DNA from: Cyanidioschyzon merolae
Taxonomy: Eukaryota
Direction: 5' to 3' (one strand)
Assembly (NCBI GenBank): GCA_000091205.1
Contig: AP006497.2
Length of the DNA: 64,000 nt
Shown here: positions 451 to 49,350 of the stretch, one piece after another
How positions within the stretch are numbered: the first letter of the stretch is position 1
How the letters are laid out: each line of letters starts with the position of its first letter
The notes under the pieces: generated by a model
Told to the model about the DNA's origin: nothing
Seen by the model: only the letters and a program-made list of their open reading frames with translations
Database searches by the model: none
Position numbers and translations under genes: made by a program

Positions 451-3247
451 CCTAAACATGCTTGGACAGCTGGCGAGGCGGACACGGCTGAGAATTGCTT
501 TGAGCTGCGCTTCGTGCTTGCTGATTCTCCTTCGTTTAATGCAGTCGATGGCGTCTTCACTGTTGCCCAGTGACAGTTTTTCAGTAACGGACCAATAGGG
601 GAATCGTTCGCGTCCAAAACATCGATGGATGCAGGGCGCTATTAGGAATCGTGTAGCTTCTGACTTGAGGCAGACTGGCCGAGATTTCCTCGTATGAAGC
701 ATCCAGTTAAGCCACTGATCGTACGAGTTCGGGACCTAGGGATGCCAATTCTCCACAATTCTCTGGTTTGCTTCCAGCAAACCTTCAATACGGCAACACA
801 GCTAATGCTCGGGACTGAAGAGGCTGCACAGATTGTACATAGGATCCGGGATGTACACATCCGCGTCCCAGAATACCATGACACGTTGCCGCAGCACGTC
901 GGCGATGCGAGCATCCAAAGCGCGGGTACCGAACCTTGTCTGACGAACATCGAAAAAGAACATCTCCATATGCAGATCATTGTCGTGAAGTTCATGCAGC
1001 GCAGCAGCTGAGCGTTGTGCCCACAAATTCGTGGTCCGGTAAAATGCGAAGTGATGCACATGATTCTTGGGATGTTGATAGAGGCAAGTGATCGGCTGGT
1101 GCCACAAGACATCGAGGTGATTGCGAGCTCAGACGAGATGCCGCAACGAGATCCAGAGACGCTTCAGGTCGTTCATGCTTATGATGGTGCTCTGTTTCTC
1201 GGACTGTTGGATGTCGCATGCAGATATCGTTGGAAATGTGATGTGTTCGTGCATTCCTTGCTACCTGCACTCCCGTGTTTTCCTGAAGCGAACGCTCCAG
1301 AGCAAGGAATGCTCCATGTCACTGCAACCCGGGCGCTCTCGCCTCCTCAAAGCTTGAGGACGATATGGTCCCCATGAGTCACATCTACGCCAAAGATATT
1401 ACCATGGACAATTGGATAGCGTACTTTACGGCCTGTTCAGGGAGCGACGGCTTGTCTCTGGCAGCAAACGTAGAGGAGTATTCCGACAACATCGCCTGGA
1501 GCGTTGGCGGAGCCTTTGCAAGGTGTCTCGTTTACAGGGAAGAAACGGAAAGAAGCCGATCAGACAATCGAGATCAACGGAATATCCATTTGTATGCAAT
1601 TCTTGGAACCTTTGCCTGAAGCGAGCGGCTACAATCGATTGCAACCTTTCGTGTAGATGAAGCTCAGGACTTTGTGGTACACGTGGATGCCGGGTCGAAA
1701 GCCGTCATCGTCATCGCCACGCGTCTCGATCAGGAGCGCGGATCCAAACGCCTGATCGGGAGCATGGACGACGCTGCAAAACTATTCGAAGGCTCTTTAC
1801 GATAGCGAGAAGGCCACGCTGGAGGCCAGGATGCGTACCAGCAGGTCGAAGGACGGGATCAGGACCCGTTCGACGCGCTGAGCACCGCATCGAGCCGATG
1901 AGGATGCTATTTACGCAGTACTCAGAGCGTCCGTGAGCATCCAGATGCTTTATGAAGACGAGTTTTGACAGGCGTGTATGTCAGATCGCGCTGGAGTCGC
2001 CAATTGTTCTGATTGGATGGAGACAAGAACATGCTTTAGCCAATTGCATGAATGAGTTGGAAAAGTGACTCGCCGACAAATCGCGTCTATCACTGGTAAC
2101 CTATGGTGCTAGACGTGCCGTAGCGCGCAAAGGCTGCCCGTTTCCCATGATGAACCGAGCGTACAACGAGTGCAGGTATTGATCCTGAGCGATTCCCATC
2201 GATGCGCTCGAGGCGGCATATGCGCACCACGACCATGAACGCATGTGGAATCTGGTAGAAGGAACCAGTGTGAAGCAGATTCGGATGCACTATCTGGTGT
2301 CCGGGAAGCGGACCGGACGCCAGATACCGAAGTGATCGAAGATGAGAGGCTTGCTGTGCTGCGATTCCACGAGCAACAACGCACTTTCTGAACCCAGACC
2401 TGAATGCCTCCATCACCAATACGAAACGTGTCGTGCTTGCAGGGCGTCCGCCGGCCTTGTATCGATCGATGCTTCGAGGTGATCGCTTCGTACTCAATGT
2501 TAGCGTTGTGCTAAAAAGGCTGAAGGCTTCTGATGGGTAAAAATCAATAGCCAGGAGGCCGAGCATTGGAATCTCGAAAGGAGTACGGCATTGGCAGGGC
2601 ACGGTTCAGCAATTCAAAAACGCCAAAAGCGTGGTATATATGCGACAGGAACACTTTCAGCCTGGGCAATCAATGACCAATTGATGAGCTTCATGAATTG
2701 ATGTTGCTGAGTACACGAAACTCGCCATCGACGAAGGTTGATGGCGTTACGTCTCGATCGCAGTGATGAAGGCGTAGCAAACAATGGGGAACAACGAGTA
2801 TTCCCATGCATTTACGGGAAGTAGTCTCCGAGCACGCGGTAGCAGCTTGGGGCGGAAAGATGCCCCGCTTGGTGACCAGCCAGTCACTCGGTCTGTCAGC
2901 CAGACAGCCGGTGCCATGAGGTATCTTGCCGACAGGTGTCTAGCCCGCCATCCATGCTCGTATCCCTTTCAACTACAACGTTCTAGAATTCGCCAGTACC
3001 GTCCACGCTTTGTCACGAACGGCTGTCGCGGACGCCGCCTATGGTGTGTCCAGTTCCTGCCTAACGTTTTCGAATCAATCGGATGCTCGCTAATTTCGTG
3101 CGGCGAAAGAGTCACGCCCCTTGTCGTTGCAGCACAGGCACGCCATCCCCAGCCGCTGATGACCGAATGCAGGGTCAAACGAGCCTTCGCGTGCCTGCAT
3201 ACAGCGCCTGGAAGAGCGGGACGCCGGCACGCGGATGTGCTGACGCA

Positions 3248-5374: not shown

Positions 5375-7197
5375 GGGCGCTGCTATCTGCCGTGGAGCGC
5401 GCGCCTCGTGCTCACGTTGGCGTTCACGTACCGCCCCAGGCGTGAAACTTGTGCCACTGGTCAAAGCTTTGAAAGTGGAAACTATCACTGCTAGGTTGTA
5501 CGCACACACCGCAACTCAAGAAGCAGGTATCCGAGCGTTCGTTCAGAGTCCGGATTCCGGGTGCGGAAATCGACGTTGGCGTTGTGAACACGATCGCGCT
5601 GCATGCGGCAACGCAAAGGGCGCATCCTCACAGAGGAGCCAGAATACGCTGAAACGTGCAGTTTTTTGGCCATTCTATATGCTTTTGAGAGAGCCACAAC
5701 ATAGCGCACAACTCCTCGCACGCTACCCCTGTACCAGGTGAAAAGAAGGACACGAAGCTGGTTGCTCTGGTTCTTTTTATTCGATTTCTTGTACAATATT
5801 AGCTGTAAATGGACAGTCTCTACATTTGGCGTACAGCGAAAGAGCGCTTTACGTACATGGACGTGATTTAAGGACTTTCGGTCATCGTTTTGAGGTGTGT
5901 ACTTGGACGCTTTGACGAAGGCATATGCTACGTAACGTTAATGAAGATGGGTCGTGACACACTCGAATGAGAGCTCGTAAAATAACCGATAGCAGTATTC
6001 CATGCGAATGCACGAGCCTCAACTCTCGTTCCTTCGCTATGCGACGCATGCTCCATATGATGCATGCGTCAGGTTTTCGATATCTCTGTTTCAAGACACA
6101 TTGTGGGGGCAGCGATTCACACACTCGGATTGACGAGGATAAACAGTCGACGTCGTACTTTGACGACATCTTCACAGCAGAGGCATCCGCGAAGGGGCTG
6201 AATTCTCATCGCTTTTAGCGACGCTATGTTATCGCGTATCTGCCAGTATCCCGCCCGATTCATCCACTGTACACCTTTCAAAAAGTATTGAATCGGATGC
6301 CGGGCTTCAAGTAGGCACACCCGCCGCAGCAGAACGAAGACGCCACGACTCCTGTAGACGATACCACGGAACTCAAGGCTATTTGGGTAGCTAGATCTAT
6401 GAAGTCTCTGGTGCTTCGTTGAGAGTCGGTGGAAATCTCTAAACATCCTTGGAGGAGCTGAGATCTCCTCTCTGGATACCTGTAGCGATTGTGTACGCAC
6501 CGTATTTTGGTTCGATTCACGTATCTCGCAGCGTAGAAAAGTTCCGCTCCGACCGGTAAAGTCGCGTTTCCTCAGCTTCGAATGTCATGAGTCCAGCCAG
6601 CCGGTACTTGCACACATATCTACCCATACATGTCCATGCACATGTACATAGAATGCGGAGCTGTCGTCGAACGCATGGGCGAGGCACGATCCCACTTCTT
6701 AGCCGCCACGAGCCCCGTGAGAATACACCAAACGACCCATAATCATCATTTGCAACGGAAATATCCATCCGCTCCAGTTACCGTGCCCTAGCGATGAAGG
6801 ATGGTACGCACCACTTGGAAGCAAGCGCAGCGAAGAGCTGAATCACTGAGCGAGACCCGCTTATGTCGCTGGGATTCCCTCGAAGCCTGTTAGGACAAAG
6901 CGCTTGGAAACCTGCCCTATTGTTTCCACATTACCCTCGAGTAAAAATCGATCTCAAATGCACTTGAATACAATACCAAAAGCGTCTAGTGACGACGCAG
7001 ATCCCTCAAAGCTCTATGGTATAGAGCGCGGCTCGCTTCACCGATCATCGAGGTGGCGCTTGTTCGGAACTCGGAAGACGTCCGCACTTGAGCGGTTTGT
7101 CGACCTGCACGCTGCTCGGGACGTGAGGCATACGTTGACCTTTAAATCTTCGAATAGCCACAGTTTTCGGTCTTCTTAACTGATTCAGCATTCGATC

Positions 7198-14177: not shown

Positions 14178-15344
14178 GCAAACGTTTTCAGGTGAACGTG
14201 CGTGCGCACGTCCATGGACGCACGCATCCGCTTCCTAGACACGCACGCGTGCACGCACGCATGTCAAGTCTTTCAACTCAATTCTGTTTCACCCCTGCTG
14301 CAGCGTATAGCAGGTGATCGATATTACGATGCAAAGTACCGTTTGAATCGTTGGCGAATTGAATGTAGGATACATATTCTTTACTGAACATTGGGAAGAG
14401 CACTGCACTCCTCTTTCGGGTCAGTAGGACCATAGGAGAGGTACGGTTGGGGAACACTGACAGGAACCCATGTATGCTGCCTTTACCAAGACCCGATATT
14501 CTAAAAGTCTGCTTATGGTCAATGGTAGAAAAGGACCCGTTGATCACTTTAGGAGAAGCAAAAGCGACGACAATGGTCGCCACGAGCGTCTCTGTTTCTC
14601 AATACGTTGTCTGTTTGGCCCTGAAACCCTGAGCGTTCCGTCACCAAAAAGTCCGATTTCGATCACGGACATCGCGCACCGAAATCGCAATGGCGGCGTT
14701 CCTGGAACGTCACAATCGGTACGAAGCACATGGACGTAGGTTTGTTTCTTAAGTCGATAAGACTCGCTTCGGAAAAACGGTCGGTGCTCATATGGGTATT
14801 CGCCGAGCAGGGCGCCCGTTTTATGAACGATCGAACTCGAAGAGAACGACGACATCGGCGTATGTTCTAGCTGAAGTGGGTTTATTCGGCAGCCTCAGTT
14901 CCGCTCGTAGAGAAGGCTCATGTAACAGCACCACCGACTTTGCCGAATCATTGAAATCTTTTCCCTGATTTCTGGTGACGTCCTTCTAGTAGATAACGTG
15001 GCATTTACCTGTTCCCGTTGCGTTCGAGCTTTTGCCGATTCTGCCGAGGCGTAGAGCTGCTTCTCATTCCTTCGTATGCTCTGTGGTTGAATCTCATGGA
15101 TGGAATGTTTTCCGTCGTGAAACGGAATGATCGATCGATCGTTCGAATTGATGAAGCCTTCAGCACAGTGACACACCGGGGCACATTTCGTATGCCTTCG
15201 GGAAACCGTTTTCCTTCAGGCAAGGTCCTCTCCCGATGGCATAAAGGAGGGGATTCAGTTTCAGAAATAAAAAACCCCAAAGAAAAGTTATGCACATCGA
15301 ATTCGAGTACTCTGGAGGGTCGTCACCCCCGGGTCCGACAAAAC

Positions 15345-15700
15345 CAGAGCGAAAAGTTCTCTTCTAGCCTACCATCGAGCGAAGAAGAACAAATGACGAA
15401 GGAGACGAGGGAGAGTGGGACCTTGGCCAGAAAAAATGTGTATCTGACAGGACGGTGACGAGACGTAGTGTCACAGAGGGCACGAGTTCGAGGACTACTT
15501 GCATTCGTGAGTTCAACCAGAGGACACGAACGCAGGGACTCTGTGAACCAAGACTTGAACGCCGCCATGAATATCCGGAGACCTGCGGCGCTGAAGACAA
15601 GACCCGAAGCGCTGATGCCATTCAACTCTGTGGGGCACCCTCTCACACTCGAATATTGCACGGAGATGCTGAAGCCGATGGCGGGCGGCCGGTCGGAAAC
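15345..15700 (+). pseudogene. Copy A: a truncated 'X + RuvC-III tail' fragment of the TnpB/Fanzor-like family
   Basis: The plus strand reads VNQDLNAAMNIRRPAALKTRPEALMPFNSVGHPLTLEY at ~15543..15660. It is preceded by segment X (~15345..15540), which is shared at the nucleotide level with 19083..19280 and 36584..36780. The GGCGGCCGGTCGGAAACGG motif lies at ~15690. Upstream frameshifts are present. Confidence 0.55.
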
Positions 15701-17462
15701 GGCTTGGAGGCGTCTGTCTGGAGGTATATACGGATAACCTCGATGGTTATAGAGCTGCTCAGTTTCACTGATAGGTACGTTGACACGCACACCTCTGAAC
15801 ACGCCGCGGTTGCCCAGCGCCCCGTTGTATGCGAAGCACAGCATTCTGAGTTATCGGACCCAGCACGTCCTTTTCTGTTTCTGTCTATTTTTTCCTTGCA
15901 GCTATTCAACGAACACAATGTATTTAATGAATGGGAGGAACGTCACGAAAAGACTTGACACGCTCACCGCTAGCGAGCGAGGAATGGTTATATGTGTTCA
16001 AGCCAATCACTGCACCGTCCTGAGGTTGACGAACGGACCCTCTCATGGCTCGTATCCTGAACGCTGTCGTCCCAAAATCCAAGTTTCCAGACTCTTTCTA
16101 CAAGAATGTCTCCTGGTCACTCAATTCTCGTCACATATAGTCTATTAGGAAAACGATTAAAGAAGGCACCAGACGAGCAGTTTCCATTCCGTGCATACGA
16201 ACGGTGATGATGGGAAACGGATGCGAGGGAGAAGCGCGCCTCTATACAAGACGGTCGCGCGTCCAGCTCCACACAATCGATTTCGTACTGACACGCGAAT
16301 CCTCATTCCAGGACAGAAAGGTATTCGTCTCACTCGATAGGATTCCGTTCGCGAACAACGGCGGACCTGTGTACGGGTACTCAAACCGGGGCCGAACCGC
16401 TGTTTACAATGAAGAAACTAAAACGAGCATGACGACGGCATCAGTCCTAGTGGAGGAGCTGTCGTGTGGTCTCGTATTTATCGCAGATGGCTCGGGATCG
16501 TTCTCCACCTTATACTTCGTCGAAGCAGTCTTCGCGGATCCTCCTTCCCATATTCTTGCGTCGTGCTCTCAGACAAGGGCGCTTTCTATCACATATCTGG
16601 GTCAAGGGCATCGGCGGAATGTGTGGTGCTTCAAGCTTTATTCTGAAGAGCAGCTGCGCTGTAAATGCAGAACGCTTCGGTACTTGGGCAACGCAAAACT
16701 GGGCCTGTCGAGAACGGGTGCAGCATGTTCCCGCTGCAAACTCGACTCGTCGATGTTGTTATTGTGGGTTCTGCCCTGCACCCGAAACTCACGAGCGGCG
16801 TCGCAGCTAGGCCCTCATCTCTGGACCCATGCATCGTTGCTCTTGACACGTGCGGGAAACCTTGCAGATGCTGAGCATTTTGGGCTCGATCTCCAGAATG
16901 AGCTGAGAAAGCAGTCGGCGCTCAAATCCAATCTGTTCCGTTGCCGTATCGCCAGTCGCACGGCTCCCGGGACGCAACCCGTCTCTGCATCGCTTCCAGG
17001 CTCGCTTGACGCACTCTGGGCCAGCTACTGGGCTAATGCTCCAAACACCCGGTGCATGACCCGCAGACAAGATATTGCACAGCGAGCGTGGACGCGTCAT
17101 TCTGGCGGCCCGCAGGTGACCTTGGATCTGGAAGCGCCTTTCTCCATCTCACGATGGATCATGCCTGATGTAAATGAGAACATTTACGATGTTGGCGCCT
17201 GGGTTCACCATCGAAATCACAATCTCTAGGAATTCTCTGACGACATGCGCGCAGAGGTGTCCGCAAAACGGAAACAGCTGTTGGAATGGATCTGAGCGTG
17301 ATCTCATCCGTGCCCGCACAAGGAGATGCGATCCGCTTCTACCAAATCAAGGTTTGATACATGGCGGACAAGTGCCTTACTGATCTCAGCCCGAAAGACC
17401 GTTCCGAACGCGGTTTCCGTTCCTTGGTTCATGCGGCAAGCAAGGGTTCGACGTCGTATCGG

Positions 17463-18900: not shown

Positions 18901-19059
18901 GCGTGACACCGAGGTGTCCGCTATGGTGTTTCACTTCAATTGTGTTCCAATCGCCGCTGCGTGCTATGGAATGCTTTTTCGTGGTTTATGGCGGATGCGT
19001 TCAAAGTGAGTTTCTTTGAAGAAATGAAAAATTCACGGGGAAGTGCGTGGACATGGAAA

Positions 19060-19331
19060 TCGGGGGTTCTGGCGGGCCGTCATCACTGAGTTCTACGAAA
19101 ACGATAAGAATCCTCTTCTCGCCGACCATCGAACGAAGAAGCGCAAGTGACGACGAAGAAGAGGCGAGGTAGGCAAGAAAAGGTGTTTGCCCGACGGGAC
19201 GATGACGAGTGTGTCGTGGTACGGGGCCACGAGTTCGATGAATCCTTACATTGGAGTGTGTGTGTGTGTGTGCAGTCAACGGCAATGCACGAAAGGAGTT
19301 CGTGAACCGAGCCCTCAATATCATGCGCTGC
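19060..19331 (+). pseudogene. Copy B: segment X plus a 60-bp RuvC-III piece that abuts repeat R1 in inverted orientation (chimeric or nested)
   Basis: The plus strand reads VNGNARKEFVNRALNIMRCAV at ~19283..19331 and runs directly into R1. A (TG)9 microsatellite lies at 19256..19272. Segment X is homologous to 15349.. and 36584.. Confidence 0.5.
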
Positions 19332-20950
19332 GCTGTCAAGACTCCGCACTTTTTTATATCGTCAGGACTGATCTGGCACTTTTCCATCTCGAGCGTCTGA
19401 AGTGTACACCCCAGCTCGTGGTCTATGCAGGACGTCCGGAACTCGTCTATCGGGAATGTGACAAAACGCCTTGCGCACTCCTTGTAAGCGCGTGTCGGTG
19501 AGGCTGGAGTGCACCCTGTTTTCGACGCCCAGCGCCCTGCTCCCTATGCTGCTACGAGGCTTTGACGCTTGTCCTCCTTGAGGGTGCTCAGCGCATGAAA
19601 AAAGTTCCCAAATGCACGCCATTCCGCACAGTACAAGTTCATATGCGGACGATGGCATGGACATTGGCTTTTGAACGCTCTCTCCGCCGCTGCTTCCATT
19701 GCCGCTCTCTTAGCCCCGAGTGAACATGTGCCGGTCTCTCTTGTCCTTGCAGTTCCCGAGTCAGCAGTCGAGGGATGTCGGTGGCAGCGTTCAAGTTCCG
19801 ATTTCGCCACTTCCCGCCCGTGGTAACGCGTCCCGCGCGTAGGGCCAAGTTGCGGTCCGCACGTCGTTCCCCACGTTCATCTTCTGTGCACATACAGCTT
19901 CGGTGTGTCTTTCGCTGCGCTGACACCGGACTGTGATCAGACGTTCGCATATTCGTCTGCCGCATCTCTCACGCGACCGAGCGCCGCCCTGTGGCATGCG
20001 AAGGCTTGCTTCAGCGCTCGATGCATGTCCGGGACTGGCGTAGAAGGCGCTCGTCGAATCCATTCTTTGTCTGCATACCCGATGCCGTGACGAACGATGA
20101 CGGGCTGGTTCCGGGCGATTCCCTTTGCGAGTGCGCTGTATGGTGCAAAAGCAAGCATACGCAGTCCCGTTTGAGAAGGGATTCGTGGAATGCGATATTG
20201 GCCTTGGTGAGGCAGGCACCGGAATGATAACACTCATAGGAGAACCAGTCGAGTGATTTCGATCCGTCCACGCTGTTCTACAGCGAAGCGGCGATCCAGT
20301 CTGCACCAGAGGCGATCGCTGCGACGACTATAGTCAAGGACTTCATTCCATGCAACCAGAAGAGGCGAGTGCATCTGGGCGCGAATCCCCGTGTAACGTA
20401 CGATGCAGCTGTCGAATTCCCTGTCTCGCGGATGACCACAGGGACACAAGGATTTGTCTTTCGAAAGGATTCGATCATTTGATACGAGAAGCACGATGAG
20501 GCTTGGGCGTGAGCGTGTGAACACGTCGTCAAGGAGCGACGTCGGGCTCCGTGCCGCGCCAGTCCAGTGGCGAGCATTGCTGTGCCCACGGGTTGCCTTG
20601 AAACAGAAAGATCGAAAACATGAAGCATGCATGATTTGCGCATGCTATACACAAGGAACGCGATAGCGGTAGAGGCTTGTGCCTACAAATTGGTTCATAA
20701 AATCGGCTATTTTACAAACCTTTGTTTGGCGGCGTCGAGAAGCATCTCGATCCCGGTGACGTATCGAGTTACAGGGGCAACGCGTCGAAAGTGGCACGCA
20801 GTAACGCCGACCGGGAATCCGGAAACTGCGCATGAATTTCCAAGCCCTGATTGTTGCACTTTGAGTGTCTAGACCATATATCTAGGACAATGCCGGGAAA
20901 AAAAATCGAAAGGCAGGGCCAGCGCGTGCAGTGCAGTATCCCGTATTCAT
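19332..20950 (-). mobile_element. R1: a ~1.6 kb repeat carrying a decayed TnpB/Fanzor-like coding region; it is copy 1 of a direct-repeat pair
   Basis: It is about 97-98% identical to 39027..40645, with a constant offset of 19,695 bp. The minus strand encodes fragments in three frames, including WRAFGNFFHALSTLKEDKRQ and the zinc finger ...FRTSC..HELGC...CQISPDDIKKCG at its low-coordinate end. Multiple frameshifts leave no intact ORF. Confidence 0.7.
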
Positions 20951-22673
20951 CCAACGGTGGCACAGCGCTGCGGGAATCGGGCACCATTGAGGCGGGGCGT
21001 GTGTTGCGATGAATTCTATAATCAAAAGAACGTTCTGTTCTGAGCACGGGACCGAACGCTCGATGGATATCATCACCCTGGAAAGCGTCCATTATGCCTC
21101 GCCTTACGTTCAGGTACCAGCCGCCACTAGGCATACTTTTCCTCAGAGATACTAGTCGTCATATGTGTTCAACACTGTTCCGAATCTTCCGAAAATGCCG
21201 GGCAAATTGCGCTGGCTGTGGAGCGCGCTTCGAATGTAGTGCACCAGTGCCGAGAGCGCTTCGACGGCTCGTGCCATCGCGTCTCTGGTACGCCAGGCGA
21301 AGACGAGCCAACGTTGTTGCTGGTGTAAAACTTCTGAAAGGTGCCATGGATTTGGCATTCGCAGGCAGGAGTTGCACAGGCGACACCGACAGCGTACTAT
21401 CAAAAAAATAGGCGCATGGCATGTCGTAGCATAGGGAGCCTTCGTCTCATGAGTGTGTACTGGAAACACGAGTGGCTGCCGCACAGAAGCTGCGGATCGC
21501 GCCGAGAAGCAGCTGGGCATGCGCACAACCCGAGTAATGGGGCACACGCGAGCGTCTCGACGCGACTCCAGTGCTCCAGAATGCCTGGAAGCGTGTGCCG
21601 CGGCCTAGGCTGCCAGGCAAGCCTCGTTCGAGCGGCACCGTCCGGCGCGAGTCGAGTGCGACCTCCCCTCCCACGAGTCAGGCATCCGGGTGCCGGACGC
21701 AAATGATCCTCAGTCGGTATAGCGCGTGCGCATATTGTAGCGACGTGCTCCGATATGGCCGCAACACGTAGGCCACTGGCGCAACTTTTTCGCAGCCCGA
21801 CATACTCTAAACTGCCCAGAGGCTTCTCACTGCGCTTCATGCCGCAAAGCGTTTCCAGTCAGTACTTAGGGCGGTGTCGAGCGCCCTGCTCGACGCAGCG
21901 TTCTCGCGCGCCGCATCAAGTCGTTCTGCAATTCATCATCATTGTTCCGCCTCCGTGACTCGATTCAGTCGCATGCCCTCTAGACTTGCCATCCCGAGTC
22001 GCTGCCCGCGCATTGCGTCCACGAAAGCTCGTCTGTGTAGACAACAAGCGAATCGTTCCAGTCACAACGCTCGTCCCCGTGGACGCGATACAGGATACCC
22101 GCGTCGCCACACGCAGCGGTTACTCGAAGCGTCCCGCTCCTGCCGCTGATACGAGTGCTGCGGCCTCAGCGTCGATATGCCTGCGCAGCGCATGTTTCCG
22201 GCCTGCTTTTTTTTCATTGACAAAACGTTTACTTAGGCCAGCGTTCTCCGATTACGCGCATTTTTCTTTTCTTACTTTTTTCTGTGAGTGTTTTTTTCCC
22301 CGCCCTGCTGCGGAGGCGCGGCGCCCGCGCGATCGATGAACGCATCCCCGCGGATCGTTGCAAAAGCGCGACACGTCACAGCGCCGCATGCGTGCGTGCG
22401 TGCCGGCGGCGGCGGCGGCGGGAACAGCACTGTGGCATGCGTGCGTGCCGCGAACGCTCATTCAACAGTAGGCTCTCAGCGCAGCGTTCTGTTTTTGGGC
22501 GAATACAGGGAGCACCGGCAGTGTTCATCGAGAAGGAGTGTACTACGCGCCTGTGCGAGCGGTGACCGGGCGAAGGACCATTCGGTAGGTATCACTTGGT
22601 ACTCGTTCGAGAACGCCAGAGTTTTCTGCAGAAGCTTTTCGGATTTCGGTAAGAGGAGCCAGCGCGCCGAGGA

Positions 22674-25031
22674 ATGCTTGGTGATAGCACACGTCCCGTG
22701 TTCCTCTCGCCGGGCTTTTGGTGGATAGCCACAGCGCTCCTTTCAACGTATGCCGTTGTCGACGCGCACCTTGGTCACCTCACCAGTGTTTTCGAACGCG
22801 TTGCCGTGGCAGTGCCTTTGGGCTGGGCGGTGTCCTCGTGGCTCGCGTATTTGTTTGCGTCGCTGCGCTACCAAACGCTTGATGTACGATCCGTTCGAGC
22901 TGCTTGGCTAGTGCAAGCTGCAATCGGCTTGTTTCATGTGTGGCTGGTTCAGCGACGGAGAAAGGCGGGTCATGAACCAGCTGGCACCGTGAGGGACTCG
23001 CCGGCCCGCAGTGCGAAGGTAGCACCGCACAGGCCTGGGATGGGCGTCACAGCATTGACGGCTTTGATTGTCTGGCCCATGGTCTCGAGTCGTTTCCTGC
23101 GGAACGAACCAGATGGTAGCGTGAGCTCAGGTGGCGCAACCTGGGCCGATTTGCCGTTCCACATGAATATAGCGGCATCGTTCCTCTATGGAACGAACCG
23201 GGAATTCGACTATCGTCGCACAGAGGCAGCATTTTATGCAGGTTCGCGCCTTGTTTATCCGCTACTTCCAGACTTTCATGCAGCGTGTCTGCGGGTATCG
23301 GGCATGAGCTGGCGCATGAGTTTTCTGCTACCGGCACTGTTTCTGGCTGTATCAGCATCGGCGCTGCTGTATGCGGTGAACTGGCGTTTAACCGGCAGTC
23401 GCGCCGCTGCCGTGCTCTCCGTTCTCCTCGTCATGTGTGCAGGTGGTACCGGGTCCTTTGAGCACTGGATCGAGCGAGGCTGGAGTCACGCGACGCGCGT
23501 AGCCTGGGATGTGGATCCGGTCCAAGCTGACCGTGAGGGCGGCAGACAAGAGATCCTGTGGTTTGCCTACTTTGGGCATGTGTTCTTGCCACAGCGACCG
23601 GCCACGTATGCAATTCCCCTGATCCTCATTGTTATCCTGCTGCTTGTTCTTGCCATGACCGAAGGTGTTCCGCTTCAACAGAGCGCTATTGTGTTGAGGC
23701 TGGCGGCCTTTGTCGCCGGTATCTTGCCCTTATTCCAGGCGCACGCATTTGTTGGTGCAGTGATTCTCTGCTCTGTGCTCTTCATTATGGATTTCGACCG
23801 ATGGTACACACATATGGATCTTCTCTGGCGAGGGTGGCTCACAGCCGCTTTCATCGGTTTGGCGTTGTCGGCGCCCCAGCTTCCGGTATACATCGGGAGG
23901 GTGGCATCGTCGAGGGAGCAAAGAGGCTTTCTTCGCTTCTCTTGGACGGCAATGTCATCCTTCAACAGAGGGTTTTGGAGAACCTGGTTCCGCGCCCTGA
24001 CTCTACACGTTCCAGTCTATACACTTGTGTTTGGCATTGTGTCCGTGGTGCTGTTGGCACAGGCGCTTGCAGATCTGGAGAGACTTTTCGGAGTACGCGG
24101 ATACTTTCCGATCGTGGAACGCATCCAAAACCGCGTTGTGCACTTGCTGCGGGGCCTTGCTCCGGCTTTTAGCGGGCCTTCACATTACTGGCGTTTGAAG
24201 TTCTTCCCCGCATTCGCTGCAGTTTTCGTTTTCTGTAATCTTTTCCTCATTCAGCCATGGGTCAAGGATAACGTCAAGCTCGTGTATATTTGGCTCTTTC
24301 AGGCTGCAGGTGTCGTTGGGTATCTGCTGGTGCGTTTATGGCGGCGCGGTGGGCCTCTGGGCAAGCTCCTGACCCCGCTGATCCTGTTTTTCATGCTCTT
24401 TAGCGGCTTTCTGGGGATGCGCCGAGAATGGGGTGGCGTTACGGCTGAGCTCTTCACACCCGCCGATCAAGAGCTAGGTGAATGGATCAAAATGAACACG
24501 CATTGGCGATCGGTGTTTCTGACTGGCGAAGAGCACGTCAATCCCGCTTGTGCCCTCGGCGGAAGATCGCTGTATCTTGGCTACCTGGGCTGGGTGTGGT
24601 CCCATGGTCTGCCGAATATTCACGAGCGAGTGCAGCTTCGGGACAAAGTGCTTCGAGGTGATGATCGGAATGGGACAGAGCTCTTGAATCTGCTCCGATT
24701 CCGGCGAGTGAGTCATATTTTGCTGGAGCCAAGAATACCGGATCCAGGCTTTGAGAGCATTTTTAACCCGTCCGACGTATGGCTCGGGTACGAGAACCAA
24801 GGATGGCGTCTGTACTTCATCAAGGATGTCGTTCTCGGTGATCGGCCCATCGAGTCTATCTCGAGAGAGCAGCTCTTCTTCTCGACTGGAGTCTCGCTCG
24901 TTGCACTCTGGATGGCCGCTATCTGCTTGTGGTATTTGCCGTGCGTGTTTACGCGGCAGAAGACCGAAGAAGACGGGAACTACGTGCTGCCGCATGGCAC
25001 GATCGGCGGTCGACGCATGAAAGCGCTGTAG
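22674..25031 (+). CDS. Polytopic membrane protein of unknown function (GT-C-like topology: ~12+ TM helices followed by a ~200-aa soluble C-terminal domain)
   Basis: This is a 785-aa ORF with many hydrophobic segments over the first ~560 aa. A W/Y-rich soluble C-terminal domain follows. No family was recognised with confidence. A (GGC)n/CpG-rich tract lies upstream at ~22290..22480. Confidence 0.45.
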   Translation: MLGDSTRPVFLSPGFWWIATALLSTYAVVDAHLGHLTSVFERVAVAVPLGWAVSSWLAYLFASLRYQTLDVRSVRAAWLVQAAIGLFHVWLVQRRRKAGHEPAGTVRDSPARSAKVAPHRPGMGVTALTALIVWPMVSSRFLRNEPDGSVSSGGATWADLPFHMNIAASFLYGTNREFDYRRTEAAFYAGSRLVYPLLPDFHAACLRVSGMSWRMSFLLPALFLAVSASALLYAVNWRLTGSRAAAVLSVLLVMCAGGTGSFEHWIERGWSHATRVAWDVDPVQADREGGRQEILWFAYFGHVFLPQRPATYAIPLILIVILLLVLAMTEGVPLQQSAIVLRLAAFVAGILPLFQAHAFVGAVILCSVLFIMDFDRWYTHMDLLWRGWLTAAFIGLALSAPQLPVYIGRVASSREQRGFLRFSWTAMSSFNRGFWRTWFRALTLHVPVYTLVFGIVSVVLLAQALADLERLFGVRGYFPIVERIQNRVVHLLRGLAPAFSGPSHYWRLKFFPAFAAVFVFCNLFLIQPWVKDNVKLVYIWLFQAAGVVGYLLVRLWRRGGPLGKLLTPLILFFMLFSGFLGMRREWGGVTAELFTPADQELGEWIKMNTHWRSVFLTGEEHVNPACALGGRSLYLGYLGWVWSHGLPNIHERVQLRDKVLRGDDRNGTELLNLLRFRRVSHILLEPRIPDPGFESIFNPSDVWLGYENQGWRLYFIKDVVLGDRPIESISREQLFFSTGVSLVALWMAAICLWYLPCVFTRQKTEEDGNYVLPHGTIGGRRMKAL

Positions 25032-36306: not shown

Positions 36307-36569
36307 GTCGCTACCCGCCCGGATCCGGTACCGATGCGGTGCGATGCGTTGCCGCGCGCGCGCGGGCGCTGCGGCGCGCCATCCGTTTGCGCTTACGATT
36401 ATAGAGTTTCACCTGAACTGTGTTCCACGTTCAGATCCGTGTCAACGAATGCCTGTTCGCGGTTTATTGCAGGTGCTTTCTACGTGCGTTGATTTTCAAA
36501 AATGCAATATTCAAAGGAAAAGTATGGACATGCAAGTCGGGATCATGGAGGTGAGATGTTGCCTGATTC

Positions 36570-36910
36570 GACAAAAAGAAACACGATAAGATTCCTCTTA
36601 TTGCCGAGTATCGGACGAAGAAACGCGAGTGACGAAGGCGAAGTGGAAGAAGCGTGTTGATAGGCGAGGAGAGCTGTTTGCCCGACGAGGCTGTGACGTG
36701 ACCTTGGTGGCACAGAGGGCACGAGTCCTTATGCACCCTTGCGTTGATGACTTGTACCAGAGACAATACACGCTGGGAGTTCATGAATCGAGACTTCAAC
36801 GCTGCGCCATTAAAAACAGACGATGTGCGGTGCTGAAGAGGCGACCCGCGTACCCGACGCGAGCCAACTTTGTGGGCCAGCCTCTCACACTCGATGTGTG
36901 CAACGATAAA
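36570..36910 (+). pseudogene. Copy C: a truncated 'X + RuvC-III tail' fragment, frameshifted
   Basis: The plus strand reads EFMNRDFNAAPLKTDDVRC, then shifts frame to IKNRRCAVLKRRPAYPTRANFVGQPLTLDVCNDKL. Segment X lies at 36584..36780. The copy sits in the promoter region of the minus-strand hydrolase gene, which starts at 36306. Confidence 0.55.
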
Positions 36911-37591
36911 CTGAACTCACTAGTCCTGAAGCTTTACGTATATCGGCGTTATACAGCAGTTCGCTACATGTCGGAAGCGTCGGATGCCACGTGGTTCCTA
37001 AATTCGCATGAAAGTTCACTACAGCAACGCCGTACCACACACCATGAGTGATGCTCGTCGTCTTTGCAAAGACGCTTCCGTGCATTGTCGCTGGTATAGG
37101 GGCAGTCAGCTTGTCAAATAGCGTCGTGCGGGTACCCTGAATCAACTGGAAACCAAGCATCCAATCGATTCAAGGTGTTTCTCAGTCACAGTTGGGCGTC
37201 AAGTTGTCCTGATCATGCAGCGACAGAGGCGGCAGCCGCTCAGCACCCCCTGAGTCGGAGTTCCACGTCTGCAATCCGCCATTGTGCTCGGCTGAAGAAG
37301 CGTATCGACAAACGTGCAACAGGCATGAGCCACAGATCGGCCGCTGAGCTACATGTATCCGGACGCTCGTTTCCGCCTGCAGAGCCATCACGTATGCGCA
37401 TGAGAAAGTTCGCACCCGATGCATACATCTCGAAGCAAACCGCATGCTGCCGGCTGTGGATAAAGTGCTCTATTCAACGGACAAGTCGAACGCGAACGCC
37501 CTCCAAGTGGCGGCACCACTGAATCGGACAATGTTTACAACCTGCCATGCCTTGCGGTATGCTGCTAACGCTCATTCCAGGCGCTCGAGGT

Positions 37592-38668
37592 CTAGTTCAA
37601 GGGTTTCGTCGCAAGCCACACCCGATGCCGCGGCGTATTGTTTTCGGTCTGCACGTCAGTGAATCCACTGATTGTCAGTAAACTGACCATATCGACGCGT
37701 TCATACTCAGAAAAATACGGTTCAGTGCTGCGGAATATGGCTGCTCCGACCGGGGGTATCGAACGGAACGCTTCGCTGTGCGGATCAGAATCCATCATCG
37801 CCAACATGCCTCCGGGGCGAAGCACTCGATACGCCTCTACCACGAGACGCTCGGTCGCTGCCATGGGCAGCTCATGTGTCACCAGGGAACATAACACGAG
37901 GTCCACCGAATCCGCTTTCTGAGGGAGGTTCTCGACCGCGGCGTGCTTAAAACGCACCTGAATCGATGACGGGTAGCTGCGCTCCTCTGCACGTAACTCG
38001 GCAACCGCAAGCATGAACGTCGATAAATCGATTCCTGTTATGTCGAGCGGGCGTTCCGGATACCGTGCTAGCCATGCATCGATGAAGCGCATCGTGCTGA
38101 GTCCAGTCGACGCACCCAGGTCGAGTGCTACCAGTGGACGTCCCATGGGCACGAGCAGCTGTTCCAGACGAGGCCAGACTCGGTCCAGGAAGGTGTCGCG
38201 TAGCAGGCGGTCACCTTGCGTGGGCGGTGCTTCCGGGAAAAGGCGTGCATGGACCGCCAGAGCCGACGACTCGACTTCCATGGCAGGAATCCAGCCAAGG
38301 TTCCCTTCCGGATACGTATGGAACGGTGCACGTACGTAGTAGTCTGGATATACGAGGTCGCGTTCGACAAGTCGCGCTCGTTTCTGTTCGAGGGTGTCCC
38401 ACTTGAGCCGCAGCTCACGAACGTTCTCTCGCCAGGGCACGCCGATCTCCTCCGCTCTCTTGACGACACCTGCACGGCCAATTCGCTTCAGTAACCAAGC
38501 AGTGGGCGGGAAAGCTAAAATCCCTTGTACTATCAGAGCCGGCAGTTTGCCCTCGGGGTTTCGCGTCACTGGAGTCGTCGCCGAAGCGTGAATCCATCGA
38601 CAAGCTCGGTATCGAGTGCACTTCTGAGACGGCAGTCTCACGCATGGAACAAAGTTTAACTGCGTCAT
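37592..38668 (-). CDS. Class I SAM-dependent methyltransferase (Methyltransf_11-like)
   Basis: Motif I is VALDLGASTGLSTMRF. Downstream blocks are DLVLCSLVTHELP and LRPGGMLAMMD. The likely start is MTQLNF at 38668. The longer ORF, 37592..39505, reads through in frame from a Fanzor/TnpB-like remnant upstream and is judged chimeric. Confidence 0.55.
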   Translation of the reverse strand: MTQLNFVPCVRLPSQKCTRYRACRWIHASATTPVTRNPEGKLPALIVQGILAFPPTAWLLKRIGRAGVVKRAEEIGVPWRENVRELRLKWDTLEQKRARLVERDLVYPDYYVRAPFHTYPEGNLGWIPAMEVESSALAVHARLFPEAPPTQGDRLLRDTFLDRVWPRLEQLLVPMGRPLVALDLGASTGLSTMRFIDAWLARYPERPLDITGIDLSTFMLAVAELRAEERSYPSSIQVRFKHAAVENLPQKADSVDLVLCSLVTHELPMAATERLVVEAYRVLRPGGMLAMMDSDPHSEAFRSIPPVGAAIFRSTEPYFSEYERVDMVSLLTISGFTDVQTENNTPRHRVWLATKPLN

Positions 38669-38744
38669 GAGGCTCGCTATCAAACGCCGTTCTAAAGTCG
38701 AACGACGTCGGACGTGTATCGTAGTGGCGGTGAACGTGCCTTCG

Positions 38745-39026
38745 ACCAGAGGTCTTCGACTGTCGTGCAGACGCCTTCCGGTCTTTTCGGACCGGCCACC
38801 TACTCCTGATTCCAACTTTTTCTCATATAATTCCACTTTGAGCGATTGTCCAACAAAGTTCTCTCTTGTCCACTCTGGAGGTCTTTTCTCCAGCACCGCA
38901 CATCTCCTGACATTGACAGCAGCGTTGAAGTCTCGGTTGACGAATTCCATACGTTTCTTGCCGCCGTTGGTTGTGCTCACCAGCGCATGTAGTGCTCGAA
39001 CTTTCGTCCTGCTTCCCATTTGCTCT
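38745..39026 (-). pseudogene. TnpB/Fanzor-like C-terminal segment (RuvC-III motif DFNAAVNV) plus a conserved 3' tail
   Basis: GGKKRMEFVNRDFNAAVNVRRCAVL matches the TnpB/Cas12 RuvC-III consensus (AD.NAA.NI) with the catalytic Asp present. It is preceded by a CxxC...CxxCG zinc finger and the FVTFPIDEFRTSC block (compare TnpB VxVdPxYTSqxCsxCG). A 3' motif CAGGAGTAGGTGGCCGGTCCGAAAAG at ~38745..38770 is shared with copies at ~55440 and ~15690. Confidence 0.65.
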
Positions 39027-40645
39027 TCTGTCAAGACTCCGCACTTTTTTATATCGTCAGGACTGATCTGGCAATTTTCCATCTCGAGCGTCTGAAGTGT
39101 ACACCCCAGCTCGTGGTCTATGCAGGACGTCCGGAACTCGTCTATCGGGAATGTGACAAAACGCCTTGCGCACTCCTTGTACGCGCGTGTCGGTGAGGCT
39201 GGAGTGCACCCTGTTTTCGACGCCCAGCGCCCTGCTCCGTATGCTGGTACGAGCCTTTGACGCTTGTCCTCCTTGAGGGTGCTCAGCGCATGAAAAAAGT
39301 TCCCAAATGCACGCCATTCCGCACAGTACAAGTTCATACGCGGACGATGGCATGGACCTTGGCTTTTGCACGCTCTCTCCGCCACTGCTTCCATTGCCGC
39401 TCTCTTAGCCCCGAGTGAACATGTGCCGGTCTCTCTTGTCCTTGCAGTTCCCGAGTCAGCAGTCGAGGGATGTCGATGGCAGCGTTCAAGTTCCGATTTC
39501 GCCACTTCCCGCCCTTGGTAACGCGTCCCGCGCGTAGGGCCAAGTTGCGGTCCGCACGTCGTTCCCCACGTTCATCTTCTGTGCACATACAGCTTCGGTG
39601 TGTCTTTCGCTGCGCTGACACCGGACTATGATCAGACGTTCGCATATTCGTCTGCCGCATCTCTCACGCGACCGAGCGCCGCCCTGTGGCATGCGAAGGC
39701 TTGCTTCAGCGCTCGATGCATGTCCGGGACTGGCGTAGAAGGCGCTCGTCGAATCCATTCTTTGTCTGCATACCGGATGCCGTGACGAACGATGACGGGC
39801 TGCTTCCGGGCGATTCCCTTTGCGAGTGCGCTGTATGGTGCAAAAGCAAGCATACGCTGTCCCGTTTGAGAAGGGATTCGTGGAATGCGATATTGGCCGT
39901 GGTGAAGCAGGCACCGGAACGATAACACTCATAGGAGAACCAGTCAAGTGATTTCGATCCGTCCACGCTGTTCTACAGCGAAGCGGCGATCCAGTCTGCA
40001 CCAGAGGCGATCGCTGCGACGACTATAGTCAGGGACTTCATTCCATGCAACCAGAAGAGGCGAGTGCATCTGGGCGCGAATCCCCGTGTAACGTACGATG
40101 CAGCTGTCGAATTCCCTGTCTCGCGGATGACCACAGGGACACAAGGATTTGTCTTTCGAAAGGATTCGATCATTTGATACGAGAAGCACGATGAGGCTTG
40201 GGCGTGAGCGTGTGAACACGTCGTCAAGGAGCGACGTCGGGCTCCGTGCCGCGCCAGTCCAGTGGCGAGCATTGCTGTGCCCACGGGTTGCCTTGAAACA
40301 GAAAGATCGAAAACATGAAGCATGCATGATTTGCGCATGCTGTACACAAGGAATGCGATAGCGGTAGAGGCTTGTGCCTACAAATTGGTTCATAAAATCG
40401 GCTATTTTACAAACCTTTGTTTGGCGGCGTCGAGAAGCATCTCGATCCCGGCGACGTATCGAGTTACAGGGGCAACGCGTCGAAAGTGGCACGCAGTAAC
40501 GCCGACCGGGAATCCGGAAACCGCGCATGAATTCCCAAGCCCTGATTGTTGCACTTTGAGTGTCTAGACCATATATCTAGGAAAATGCCGGGGAATAAAA
40601 TCGAAAGGCAGGGCCAGCGTGTGCAGTGCAGTATCCCATTCCAAT
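39027..40645 (-). mobile_element. R2: copy 2 of the 1.6 kb direct repeat; it is continuous with a RuvC-III-encoding tail at 38745..39026
   Basis: The ORFs at 39057..39371, 39486..40001 and 39973..40347 are near-identical to those at 19362..19664, 19791..20306 and 20278..20652. The minus strand across the boundary reads ...EFRTSCIDHELGCTLQTLEMENCQISPDDIKKCGVLTEEQMGSRTKVRALHALVSTTNGGKKRMEFVNRDFNAAVNVRRCAVLEKRPPEWTRENFVGQSL. Confidence 0.7.
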
Positions 40646-41945
40646 CTAACGCTCGGCTAGCATAAACCGCTGTTCACGAAACGGCATCCATGCAATAAGA
40701 GGAGTCAGCGTACGCTCCGCAAGTCGAAATTGGACTGGGTATTCGGCAGCCTCGCAGGCGCGTTCATCGCTCTGGGCGACGAGTTCCAGAACTGGAGAAG
40801 TCTCTCTGCTCCTTCGGTGCCTCCGCGTGCAACCGAGACTTGGCCAAACAAGTGACAGGTAGCAGGCGCCCGTCACGCAATCCCCAGCATCTTCGACCGT
40901 ATCATCCGTACCGGGAATTCGGATGCTCAACACGGCCAGGCGACGATGCGCGTCCGTTTCGGAGCAGGCGAAGCGGTGCGCTCCAACGCCGGCACCCGTG
41001 GCGCCTCGCATCTCTTCGGCGAAGCGACTCGAACGCGTCAACCCCAAGATATTTCTCTAAGACTTGGCAAAGCTATTGAATTGCCGTGACGCACACAACG
41101 AAGCGCTACCCCGATTGCACCCTGCTTTTATGGTACACGGTCGATGCACCGAGCCAGATTGCCATCGGTAACCGGAAATGAAATCGATGCGCTCATCCAG
41201 ACGTTTTTGCGTATCTGAACCCTGGACCCGTATTCCCCGTAACACTGCACGCTTGATCGATCCCGCAACGCTCAGAGTGCAACGCCCATGGTACACGTCA
41301 AGCAGAGACAACACGATTTTCATCGATCCTTGGAGGCATTCGTTCAAGGCAGTTGCGTCATTTTGCATGCCGAGCGCTCGCTTGGCCGAGATCCGCGCAC
41401 CTCTGTGCGCGGCGTCCATGCGCCGGTACCCGTGTCCGTGCGCGGCTGAATGGCGCAGCGATCGCCGTCGCGCCGCCGCCACGCATCGCTGTCCGGTGTC
41501 GCATCCGTGATCGCGGCATCGCATCGGATGCGTGCAGCGCATGCACCCCGCGCGCCCAGCACGGATCGCGCAACCAAAGCATCGACGTCACGCGCCCTGA
41601 GCGCAGCGCCCGCGGACGCTTGAGGGCGTCGCGTGCATTCACGACGCTCGCGGGATCGGAATCTACTTCCGTGCATTTCGCAGCTTTGAGTAAACTTCAA
41701 GACACAGAAGCGCAGCTTATTTCGATCTCAAGTTTCATCTAGCGTTCGCTTACGTGTCGCAAAAGTGGAGAAAGCAATATGCTGGTTCTGCCTGCGCTCT
41801 GCAGCGTACCAGGCACCGCGTCACTCTGATCCGCAGTTGTTGACCTGCGCGCCCTCATCGACACACAGACGTGGTATCCAGGACGAAGCGCGTCCGCTGG
41901 TCTCGTTGTGATCCGGCAAATGCGCCCACGCCCGTGGCGCAAACA

Positions 41946-43106: not shown

Positions 43107-43454
43107 CTTTGTTCAATAGTTTTCGTGCCACTCGGTTCAGAACGGTTTCCTCGAACCGTTTCGAGAAACGCTTGACGCTGACACCACGACGAGAACGCTC
43201 TGAGCTGGTAACCCGCCCGCCGACCGAACGTTCGTCCTGACGCTGCGGCGCGCAGGCTGCGGGTGCCCGGTCGAGCAGTGGTGGTGGCGTCTGAAAATGC
43301 GCACGCGCGCGCGCTAACGCAATCTCCGGCATCGGCACCGACCGCACTAGATAGAACAAAGGACAGAGGCTATCCAGTAACTAGCAACGATATAAGGATT
43401 TATTTTCTCTTCTATGATTAATGTTAACATGACGGAAGGATTTCCGTATTGTCA

Positions 43455-44130
43455 AAAGTTTAGCTTCTAGGCGGAAGGTCCCGCGATCTGGACAAGTCTG
43501 TTAGGCTGATGCTTCATGCGCTCCCGCAATAGCTGTTGCTCTAGCGAGACCTGAGCAACTCGTCCGCAAACGCAGTTCATTCTGGGACTCAGAGCGGATA
43601 CACTGCGTTTCGATGTCGTCACGGTCGCAGTGGACTTCTTGTATATTGCTTCGCGCTGCAGCAGGCAATAGGTCCGTCTGCGCGATTGGCTCGTTCCCGG
43701 AATGCTCATGAATCCTGATTCCGTAGCAGGTGAATGTAGGCAAAAGGTCCGTCTGCGCGATTGGCTCGTTCCCGGAATGCTCATGAATCCTGATTCCGTA
43801 GCAAGTGAATGCAGGCAAAAGGTCCGTCTGCGCGATTGGCTCGTTCCCGGAATGCTCATGAATCCTGATTCCGTAGCAGGTGAACCACGCCTCGGGCCGG
43901 CACCCTTTGCAGTATGGCAAAAACGTCCTACCTCCGCGATGTATCGTCATCAGCGGTATGAGCGATAAAGCGGACGCTCACGACAGGTACTCGGCGCACG
44001 ATAGAACATACGAAACGACCAGCATATCCGTGAGGAAATATGGGTAAAGGAACTTGGAGCTAGGGTGCAGCACCATGACCAACGCTCTTCTGATTACCAT
44101 TATCCATCCGGCAACCTGTCATCCATGCTC
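43455..44130. repeat. Dispersed ~650 bp non-coding repeat (copy 1) with an internal 75-bp unit triplicated in tandem at 43671..43895
   Basis: It is homologous to 57975..58510. Shared strings include AGGCGGAAGGTCCCGCGA, ACGCAGTT(C/T)ATTCTGGGAC, GTCCGTCTGCGCG...GGCACC(C/T)TT(T/C)G(C/T)AGTATGGCAAAAACGTCCT, GCACACGATAGAAC.TAC.AA.CGACCAGC.TATCCG and ATTACCATTA(T/C)CCATC. Three 75-bp tandem units differ at 2-3 positions. Confidence 0.75.
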
Positions 44131-44334
44131 CATGTCCACCGGTTTGTCATCGAGAGAGACGGAGAGAGACCGGATAGCGCCATCGATGCGCTATCGTCGA
44201 TCGCCGCCGCTGCCATCATCTGTTGAGGGTGCCTCCAGCCGCCAGCGCGCGCCCGGATCGCGGCGACCGCTCTGCGCATCCGTCGTCCAGAGGCACGGAG
44301 TTGTGAACCTGCCCCCAGACACGTACGCTGCACC

Positions 44335-49229: not shown

Positions 49230-49350
49230 GGGATTCGCTTCATCATGGACAAGTTCGCAGTGCACAAATCCTCTATCGAATGGGACGGCGTACGCTTGGA
49301 CATGCATCGGGCAGTGTACTCGCTGTGCGTATCGGCCAGAAGAAGGCCGG
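49230..49350 (+). repeat. Fragment F: a short R-like fragment in inverted orientation
   Basis: The plus-strand peptide QCTNPLSNGTAYAWTCIGQCTRCAYRPEEGRN resembles the R1/R2 minus-strand peptide HSTNPFSNGTAYACFCTIQRTRKGNRPEPARH. Confidence 0.35.

Follow-up and report, generated by a model that had tools for sequence, protein, structure and literature searches.

The DNA analysed here, called the window, is a stretch of 64,000 nucleotides of chromosome 15 of Cyanidioschyzon merolae 10D, including CMO170C and its neighbours. The site under study lies at positions 19332/19333, where two fragments of a Fanzor1 family abut in opposite orientations. The features at this site are the following:

18921-19335, plus strand: c19, a 3'-truncated member of the ~580-nt X+tail mini-Fanzor family, aligning colinearly with the profile of that family (E about 1e-85 and 1.9e-58).
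18921-19226, plus strand: segment X, recognised with the 5'-region profile and homologous to the 5' region of full-length elements (~110 nt of 5'UTR, ATG and ~55 codons).
19231-19335, plus strand: start of the Fanzor1 3' tail (equivalents of KVRGLL...EFVNR...RCAV), tail profile positions 107-188.
19256-19272, unstranded: microsatellite G(TG)8 within the tail, where it replaces the VSTT codons.
19325-19332, unstranded: left copy of the 8-bp direct repeat GCGCTGCG.
19333-19335, unstranded: breakpoint with CTG microhomology, common to the X+tail consensus (GTGCTG/AAGAC) and to copy D (TTCTG/TCAAGAC).
19333-20942, unstranded: T1 (= R1), a 1610-nt duplicate of 39028-40637 (T2) at the D locus, 98.2% identical and without indels.
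19333-~19655, minus strand: Fanzor1 pseudogene fragment in T1, profile positions 113-246 (six-frame HMM match, 3.6e-65).
19658-20965, plus strand: copy of Y, a ~1.3-kb repeat family with terminal inverted repeats (TIRs), without its left ~80 nt.
20965-20972, unstranded: right copy of GCGCTGCG.

The high-identity repeat shared by R1 and D (98%) ended sharply at 19332/19333. Self-BLAST of the window matched 19333-20956 to 39028-40651 in the same orientation with 97.9% identity. In a base-by-base alignment the high-identity tract was 19333-20942, with 29 mismatches and 0 indels, and identity outside it was 48% in the left flank and ~25% in the right flank. The minus strand of copy D was read without interruption as ...CQISPDDIKKCGVLTEEQMGSRTKVRALHALVSTTNGGKKRMEFVNRDFNAAVNV..., and that of R1 departed from this reading after ...CGVLT; the original prediction that the D minus strand is continuous and that of R1 diverges at 19332 was thus confirmed by both comparisons. 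To the left of R1, the plus-strand ORF 19251-19400 reads MECVCVCAVNGNARKEFVNRALNIMRCAV/KTPHFF (the plus strand here is also given as ...AVNGNARKEFVNRALNIMRCAV). At the breakpoint, the X+tail consensus is ...GTGCGGTGCTG/AAGACGAG, c19 is ...GCGCTGCGCTG and D is ...TTCTG/TCAAGACTCC, with AAGAC found again 2 nt after the shared CTG, and on this alignment the joint between c19 and T1 is classed as one formed at microhomology. In the ORF, the two Fanzor pieces that abut here occupy separate segments without overlap (profile positions 113-246 in R1 and ~249-280 in the c19 tail), so they are not inverted copies of each other and no inverted duplication is present.

The family to which both pieces belong was characterized from the fragment at D and from related metagenomic sequences. 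Its copies in the window outside the junction include:

38681-39350, minus strand: copy D, a Fanzor1 3' fragment from profile position 113 to the end, with the 3'UTR hairpins.
55410-58050, minus strand: copy E, the single Fanzor1 element of near full length in the window, frameshifted.

The D fragment has ~138 close relatives in metagenomes, the alignment of which displayed the motifs GADPG, DEFRTS and NRDFNAAINI and gave a consensus with all three RuvC catalytic motifs. A scan of metagenome contigs yielded 79 loci of the family, and their coverage indicated an element of ~2.85 kb with a sharp 3' end; the longest surviving ORF has 778 aa. Pfam and PDB searches with single sequences (the D fragment and the 778-aa ORF) gave nothing significant. 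A profile search of 1.8 billion proteins retrieved 1238 relatives, many of 600-700 aa, and a profile of 47 relatives matched the solved Fanzor1 proteins of Parasitella (9cf0, E 1.2e-18), Spizellomyces (8gkh, 2.1e-11) and Guillardia (9cer, 1.9e-5); it is only through this profile of remote relatives that the family is linked to Fanzor1. The RuvC triad (D in GxDPG, E in DEFRTS and D in NRDxNAAxNI) is not intact at the junction, where R1 retains only DEFRTS and the Asp of c19 is lost. Judged by these residues, both pieces at the junction count as pseudogene remnants of the Fanzor1 family and not as active members. Two predicted hairpins in the 3'UTR are conserved in the family, one of them with a CG<->GC compensatory change in 13-15 copies. 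An Rfam scan of the window gave no match and a tRNA scan of the window was empty.

The piece to the left of the breakpoint belongs to a dispersed family of short elements, of which three colinear copies were found in the window (c15, c19 and c36). The two copies away from the junction are:

15247-15759, plus strand: c15, an X+tail subfamily copy starting at X position ~103, within a larger 1.45-kb repeat (14268-15716).
36381-36960, plus strand: c36, a complete X+tail mini-element, detected with the family and 5'-region profiles.

Positions 335-558 of the 5'-region profile, built from 41 full-length copies, matched 18922-19161 of c19 (E 9.4e-18), and the X segment of c36 matched the same profile with E 7e-23; X of both copies falls within positions 334-562. 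By eye, the similarity of X to this profile can be followed to position ~625. The tail is equivalent to the final ~290 nt of the element, from the RAKVRGLL codons onwards. Since X represents the 5' region of the element and the tail its 3' region, X+tail is identified by these profile matches as an internal-deletion derivative of ~580 nt of the Fanzor1 element, spread as a dispersed family. Further copies with the same X/tail joint were present in related metagenome loci (L041, twice; L046/L021; L072; L029), and three other loci (L070, L062 and L044) carry members of a subfamily. Considering the window and the metagenome loci together, at least 8 copies share one deletion joint, and the flanks of 8 copies are unrelated. 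The parental 3' end region is kept, and the 5' boundary is at profile position 334, ~135 nt inside the conserved start; of the two parental termini, the 5' one is therefore missing from X+tail. Neither TIRs nor target-site duplications (TSDs) were seen on the X+tail copies.

Within this family, c19 is a degraded member. It reads EFVNRALNIM, so that the RuvC-III Asp is gone (NRA), has a 4-codon internal deletion, and lacks any sequence past its RCAV codons. Its plus-strand piece is ~30% diverged from D, against 2% for R1. A microsatellite described in the original prediction as (TG)9 between X and the tail is present, but as G(TG)8 and inside the tail piece.

To the right of the breakpoint, the fragment in T1 keeps RuvC-II (DEFRTS) and a degenerate zinc-finger region and lacks RuvC-I and RuvC-III. 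DNA homology to the Fanzor family stops at ~39350 in D, the equivalent of ~19655 in T1, and the remainder of the repeat is formed by Y, for which the window contains these additional copies:

39353-40661, plus strand: Y at the D locus, also without its left ~80 nt and joined to the Fanzor fragment at the same point as in T1; T2 is 39028-40637.
48489-49793: a full copy of Y.
5780-6176: a fragment of Y.

Y measures ~1.3 kb, is unrelated to Fanzor, has at least 35 full-length copies in related loci and carries TIRs of ~28 nt (left consensus CTACACCCATGTCAGAATAAAATGGAAC, right consensus GTTCCATTTTAATCTGACACGGGTGTAG). R1 had been taken for a single 'R-type element'; this does not hold, as Fanzor sequence is confined to 19333-~19655, Y makes up the other ~1.3 kb, and the joint between them is shared with D. 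Because R1 and D have in common this unique joint of a truncated Fanzor fragment (position 113) and a truncated Y (minus 80 nt), they are copies of one another and not independent insertions. R1 is accordingly described, from this shared structure, as a partial low-copy duplicate of the D composite (a doubly truncated Fanzor1 fragment plus Y) and not as a transposon copy. The colinearity of D with the family extends past the point where T1 stops, across RuvC-III and up to the element's 3' end (~38681), so that D keeps the parental arrangement. The stop codon of copy D is lost, and its ORF consequently continues into a methyltransferase gene. T1 and D are separated by 19.7 kb and are in direct orientation, and past Y their right flanks showed no homology to each other. 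The high-identity tract stops 23 nt short of the consensus terminus of Y; the terminal ~23 nt (20943-20965) are in register with the consensus at both loci, yet 11/24 positions differ (~54% identity). A contig considered as a candidate for a complete Y at the D locus (L087) was discarded: its left third is ~12% diverged, as estimated from pairwise difference counts, and it looks like a mosaic with a third copy of Y.

The arrangement was also found in independent assemblies. A metagenome contig of 24.7 kb from another sample (L095) is colinear with window positions 22872-9231 at 99.1% identity through the junction, and this collinearity takes in CMO170C, the right flank, T1, the junction, c19 and the LRR gene. 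Two metagenome proteins from other samples (P0018 and P0020) cross the junction as ...KKCGVLT/AQRMILRARFTNS..., and the arrangement of the D locus is present in contig L085. The microsatellite is 2 nt shorter in L095, and the reading frames of P0018 and P0020 part after it. Since the same junction occurs in independent assemblies, it is real, not an assembly error, and older than the ~1% divergence between strains.

Five copies of the block were compared. T2 of L085 and T1 of L095, contigs from different samples that are assumed to represent the same strain, differ at 9 sites; orthologous blocks compared between 10D and the environmental contigs show 20-21 differences and the 10D paralogues T1 and T2 show 29, and several derived states are common to T1 and T2. 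On the assumption just stated, this pattern suggests that the interior of T1 and T2 has probably been kept ~98% alike by ectopic gene conversion, which would account for the divergence being limited to the outermost bases of Y. One contig (L081), in which the left flank of D is followed by a T1-type block, the right flank of T1 and then the chromosome 13 paralogue CMM058C, was tried as the ancestral single-copy arrangement and rejected, as its block shows T1-type states from the first informative site onwards and the contig ends in the chromosome 13 paralogue. Contig L082 is its reciprocal mosaic, a chr13/chr15 hybrid (CMM058C/CMO170C). As L081 is either a recombinant or a chimeric assembly, it was excluded from the evidence, and L082 was likewise not relied on; if L081 is real, the history would be more complex, with for example a recombinant or tandem arrangement.

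Taken together, these data indicate, with a probability of about 0.75, that two unrelated generations of dead Fanzor1 DNA of the CMe-1A type meet at this site in a rearrangement breakpoint. The older generation would be represented by c19, on the plus strand, ~30% diverged and with its tail lost beyond the RCAV codons. The younger one would be T1, the second 1.61-kb copy of a composite that is intact at D and consists of a 5'-truncated minus-strand 3' fragment of Fanzor1 joined to a left-truncated Y. T1 begins in the middle of the Fanzor fragment, just past the zinc-finger-like region, and for this reason its zinc-finger end abuts a RuvC-III piece that runs in the opposite direction. The joining step, which we infer from the 3-nt CTG microhomology with AAGAC 2 nt further on, would have been non-homologous, either by templated repair or template switch from D, or by a staggered-cut insertion leaving GCGCTGCG. 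After the duplication, gene conversion probably acted on the interior of T1 and T2, with divergence accumulating in the outermost ~23 nt at the end of Y. The catalytic motifs at the junction are all split or mutated, and on this reading of them nothing there is a functional unit.

Both routes of joining encounter a difficulty. A template switch would require the 8-bp repeat to be a coincidence, and an insertion predicts, after the repeat, a c19 tail that is absent. The perfect repeat GCGCTGCG exactly bounds the block 19333-20964, with a chance probability of roughly 1e-3 calculated from the 8-mer frequency in the window, and the pair looks like a target-site duplication. It is possible, although rather doubtful, that this block of 1632 nt was inserted whole, by a transposase or into a staggered double-strand break, at the end of an already truncated c19, with duplication of GCGCTGCG. 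Apart from the position of the repeat at both block ends, such an event is favoured by the location of the right end within 1 nt of the consensus right terminus of Y and by the ~28-nt TIRs of Y, which are typical of cut-and-paste elements. The left end, however, lies inside the Fanzor fragment and has no Y TIR, the left ~80 nt of Y being missing. At 24 other Y copies no 8-bp TSD was found, with matches at 0-5/8 flanking positions, a weak test as these copies are old and their termini degenerate. Over the terminal 23 nt the difference from D amounts to 46%, against an interior identity of 98%. Finally, the c19 tail does not resume after the right repeat. The original prediction expected the remaining tail piece beyond R1, near 20950; searches of the sequence right of R1 by two DNA profiles (E up to 100), by Smith-Waterman alignment against 9 copies and in a reconstructed empty site detected no such piece. 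The empty site brought no gain in score against the X+tail profile (277.0 versus 276.8, with controls at 277.3-278.7), and a forced alignment gave 11/27 identical positions. Thus, from the proposal that two elements meet inside the RuvC-III coding tail, the presence of two repeat units, the left one a cut X+RuvC-III element, is retained, and a simple insertion is not.

A local inversion or fold-back of the RuvC-III tail of R1 itself, perhaps at the near-palindromic EFVNR codons, is very improbable. It would account for the adjacency of the pieces and for their nearly complementary positions in the ORF (246 is the last position of R1 and ~249 the first of the plus-strand piece), and the weak identity of 48% over 50 nt left of the boundary agrees with it. 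The plus-strand piece, on the other hand, follows X and aligns colinearly with a dispersed family whose X/tail joint is the same in the window and elsewhere; this colinearity refutes a local inversion. The piece is also ~30% diverged from D when R1 is only 2% diverged. The predicted reverse-complemented remainder of the tail to the left is absent. The codons GAGTTCGTGAACCGA occupy 19296-19310, 22 nt to the left of the breakpoint; no inverted repeat was found in a search across the junction, and the folding energy of the region was weaker than that of shuffled sequences (z = +1.5), without any hairpin signal. The idea that the EFVNR near-palindrome had served as an inverted-repeat hotspot was consequently abandoned.

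It was also considered, and found scarcely credible, that the inverted RuvC-III is an artefact, visible only in peptides owing to the near-palindromic codons (GTTCGTGAAC is an 8/10 palindrome), or a mis-assembly of the reference. A DNA tail profile was built from the coding strand only of 76 copies of the family 3' end from outside the window. It matched 19231-19321 on the plus strand (E 5.7e-8 locally and 3.8e-6 against the whole window) and had no match on the minus strand of the same interval at E up to 10. The sole effect of the near-palindrome was that the R1 alignment on the minus strand continued weakly for ~40 nt beyond the boundary. As the match is on the plus strand only, the two orientations do not score equally, as they could have if the palindrome had caused the inversion; together with the occurrence of the junction in independent assemblies, this refutes an artefact. 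The opposite-orientation RuvC-III piece to the left of R1, as first proposed, is thereby established by a strand-specific profile and by colinearity with the X+tail family.

Equally hard to sustain is a functional arrangement, in which convergent Fanzor fragments act as a source of dsRNA/siRNA or as a structured regulatory element: the junction is ~99% conserved in environmental relatives, but this is no higher than the surrounding intergenic DNA, convergent transcripts of non-overlapping ORF segments would not be complementary, and there is neither an inverted repeat nor folding stronger than in shuffles.

The site carries little weight for biology at large, being ordinary transposon debris and a scar between dead fragments. 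It is of use for annotation, as the 637-aa ORF 37592-39505 is an artefact of dead Fanzor fragments, and the junction-spanning ORFs called in metagenomes are likewise. For a genome usually called repeat-poor, a short deletion-derivative family and, from contigs of different samples, a probably ongoing exchange of sequence between dispersed repeats are now on record.

The guide RNAs of TnpB and Fanzor are encoded at the 3' end of the element. A speculative proposal, to which we give a low probability, is that the X+tail mini-elements (c19 being a broken one) are guide-RNA-only passengers of the Fanzor1 family, which could be transcribed into an fRNA that uses Fanzor1 protein supplied in trans; they keep the element promoter, the 5'UTR and the 3' terminal ~290 nt with the conserved hairpins. 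If true, X+tail would be a eukaryotic counterpart of the bacterial ωRNA-only IS200/605 derivatives, and mini-elements carrying guide RNA would have a bearing on how Fanzor systems propagate.

Compared with known systems, T1 and T2 resemble segmental duplicates homogenised by ectopic gene conversion, with breakpoints formed by MMEJ or template switch. They share with these the direct orientation, the sharp edges, the 3-nt microhomology at one edge and the mosaic of derived sites across paralogues in different strains; the exact 8-bp direct repeat flanking T1 is not expected in such duplicates.

The X+tail elements, in turn, are comparable to internally deleted non-autonomous derivatives of DNA transposons (MITE-like, or the ωRNA-only PATE type of IS200/IS605). 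Like them, they combine a 5' segment with the parental 3' end, have one constant deletion joint with microhomology and are dispersed with unrelated flanks, and they differ in starting ~135 nt inside the parental 5' region instead of at the terminus.

One Fanzor1 family, CMe-1A, has been described in C. merolae, with a length of ~3 kb, ~150 old copies that are ~80% identical to the consensus, no TIRs, and 5' 635 bp in common with the repeat TE-N2_CMe (Bao & Jurka 2013, Mob DNA 4:12, PMC3627910). The passages on this family in that article make no mention of a ~580-nt X+tail derivative. The family of the window comes from the same organism and is a single-ORF element of ~2.85-3.1 kb with old copies ~70-80% alike, no TIRs and TnpB/Fanzor RuvC motifs; the repeat 43339-44153/57851-58512 of the window plausibly corresponds to TE-N2_CMe, with the shared 5' part. 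The window family is therefore regarded as probably CMe-1A on its fit to the published description. The pieces at the junction differ from CMe-1A in being fragments rather than elements: the Fanzor1 family was already catalogued in C. merolae, and the junction is a scar between its fragments.

The R1 block, a Fanzor1 fragment with a truncated copy of the Y repeat, was bracketed exactly, together with the Y terminus, by a perfect 8-bp direct repeat, GCGCTGCG, at 19325-19332 and 20965-20972. This repeat looks like a target site duplication, but other tests give no support for it. In c19, the copy of the mini-Fanzor (X segment plus tail) adjoining R1, the TG microsatellite (19256-19272) varied in length between strains. 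The metagenome locus L095 carried TTTG(TG)7, 2 nt shorter than the window, so ORFs spanning the c19/R1 junction change frame.

Other features considered here include the following.

2024-2549 (+), decayed Fanzor1 fragment
5780-6176 (-), Y copy
22578-24400, 5' part of CMO170C (chromosome 15)
37592-39505 (-), 637-aa ORF
38681-38760 (-), example of the Fanzor1 3' UTR hairpins
43339-44153 and 57851-58512, copies of the repeat that makes up the 5' end of copy E, the near full-length Fanzor1
48489-49793 (-), Y copy
58746-59274 (-), decayed Fanzor1 fragment

The density of repeats in these 64 kb is high, given the repeat-poor reputation of the genome.

Two hairpins were present in the 3' UTR of the Fanzor1 family, downstream of the stop codon (alignments A6 and A8). 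One of them, GGCG(G/C)...(C/G)CGCC, showed a compensatory CG<->GC change across 13-15 copies, and the terminal stem-loop occurred in two variants, TCGTTCGA.CTT.TCGAACGG and AACGTTTTTC.TTT.GAAAGGCGTT, with pairing possible in both. The hairpins are candidates for a right-end or guide-RNA structure.

Read-through accounts for the 637-aa ORF, which is an artefact: the Fanzor1 3' fragment at copy D no longer has a stop codon, and its reading frame stays open through the region upstream of a class-I methyltransferase gene and on into the gene itself. The same fusion was made by metagenome gene callers (600 aa in L085).

The first ~580 aa of CMO170C and its chromosome 13 paralogue, CMM058C, were 95-100% identical, whereas identity dropped to about 65% over the last ~200 aa. 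Two metagenome contigs were reciprocal mosaics of the two types: L081 had a chromosome 13-type 3' end behind the chromosome 15 upstream region, and L082 a chromosome 15-type 3' end behind an NDUFB12 upstream region. These contigs either are chimeric assemblies or reflect a polymorphism, which would have arisen by translocation or gene conversion.

A segment of ~93 nt (22201-22297) recurred, at 87-97% identity, in six or more unrelated metagenome loci, a conservation far above that of the surrounding repeats; comparison with tRNA and Rfam gave no match. At 52174-52311, a 68-nt tandem duplication (91% identity) differed in copy number in L085 and L086.

Another mini-Fanzor copy, c15, was the 3' portion of a larger 1.45-kb repeat (14268-15716), constituted by about 1 kb of unknown sequence joined to X from position ~103 onward and also found in L070 (twice), L064/L077, L044 and L062. 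The repeat at the 5' end of copy E formed the extreme 5' part of this element and of some full-length elements, and was also found alone, sometimes inverted; its copy at 43.6 kb included three 75-nt tandem units (43661-43884). This repeat is plausibly TE-N2_CMe of Bao & Jurka.
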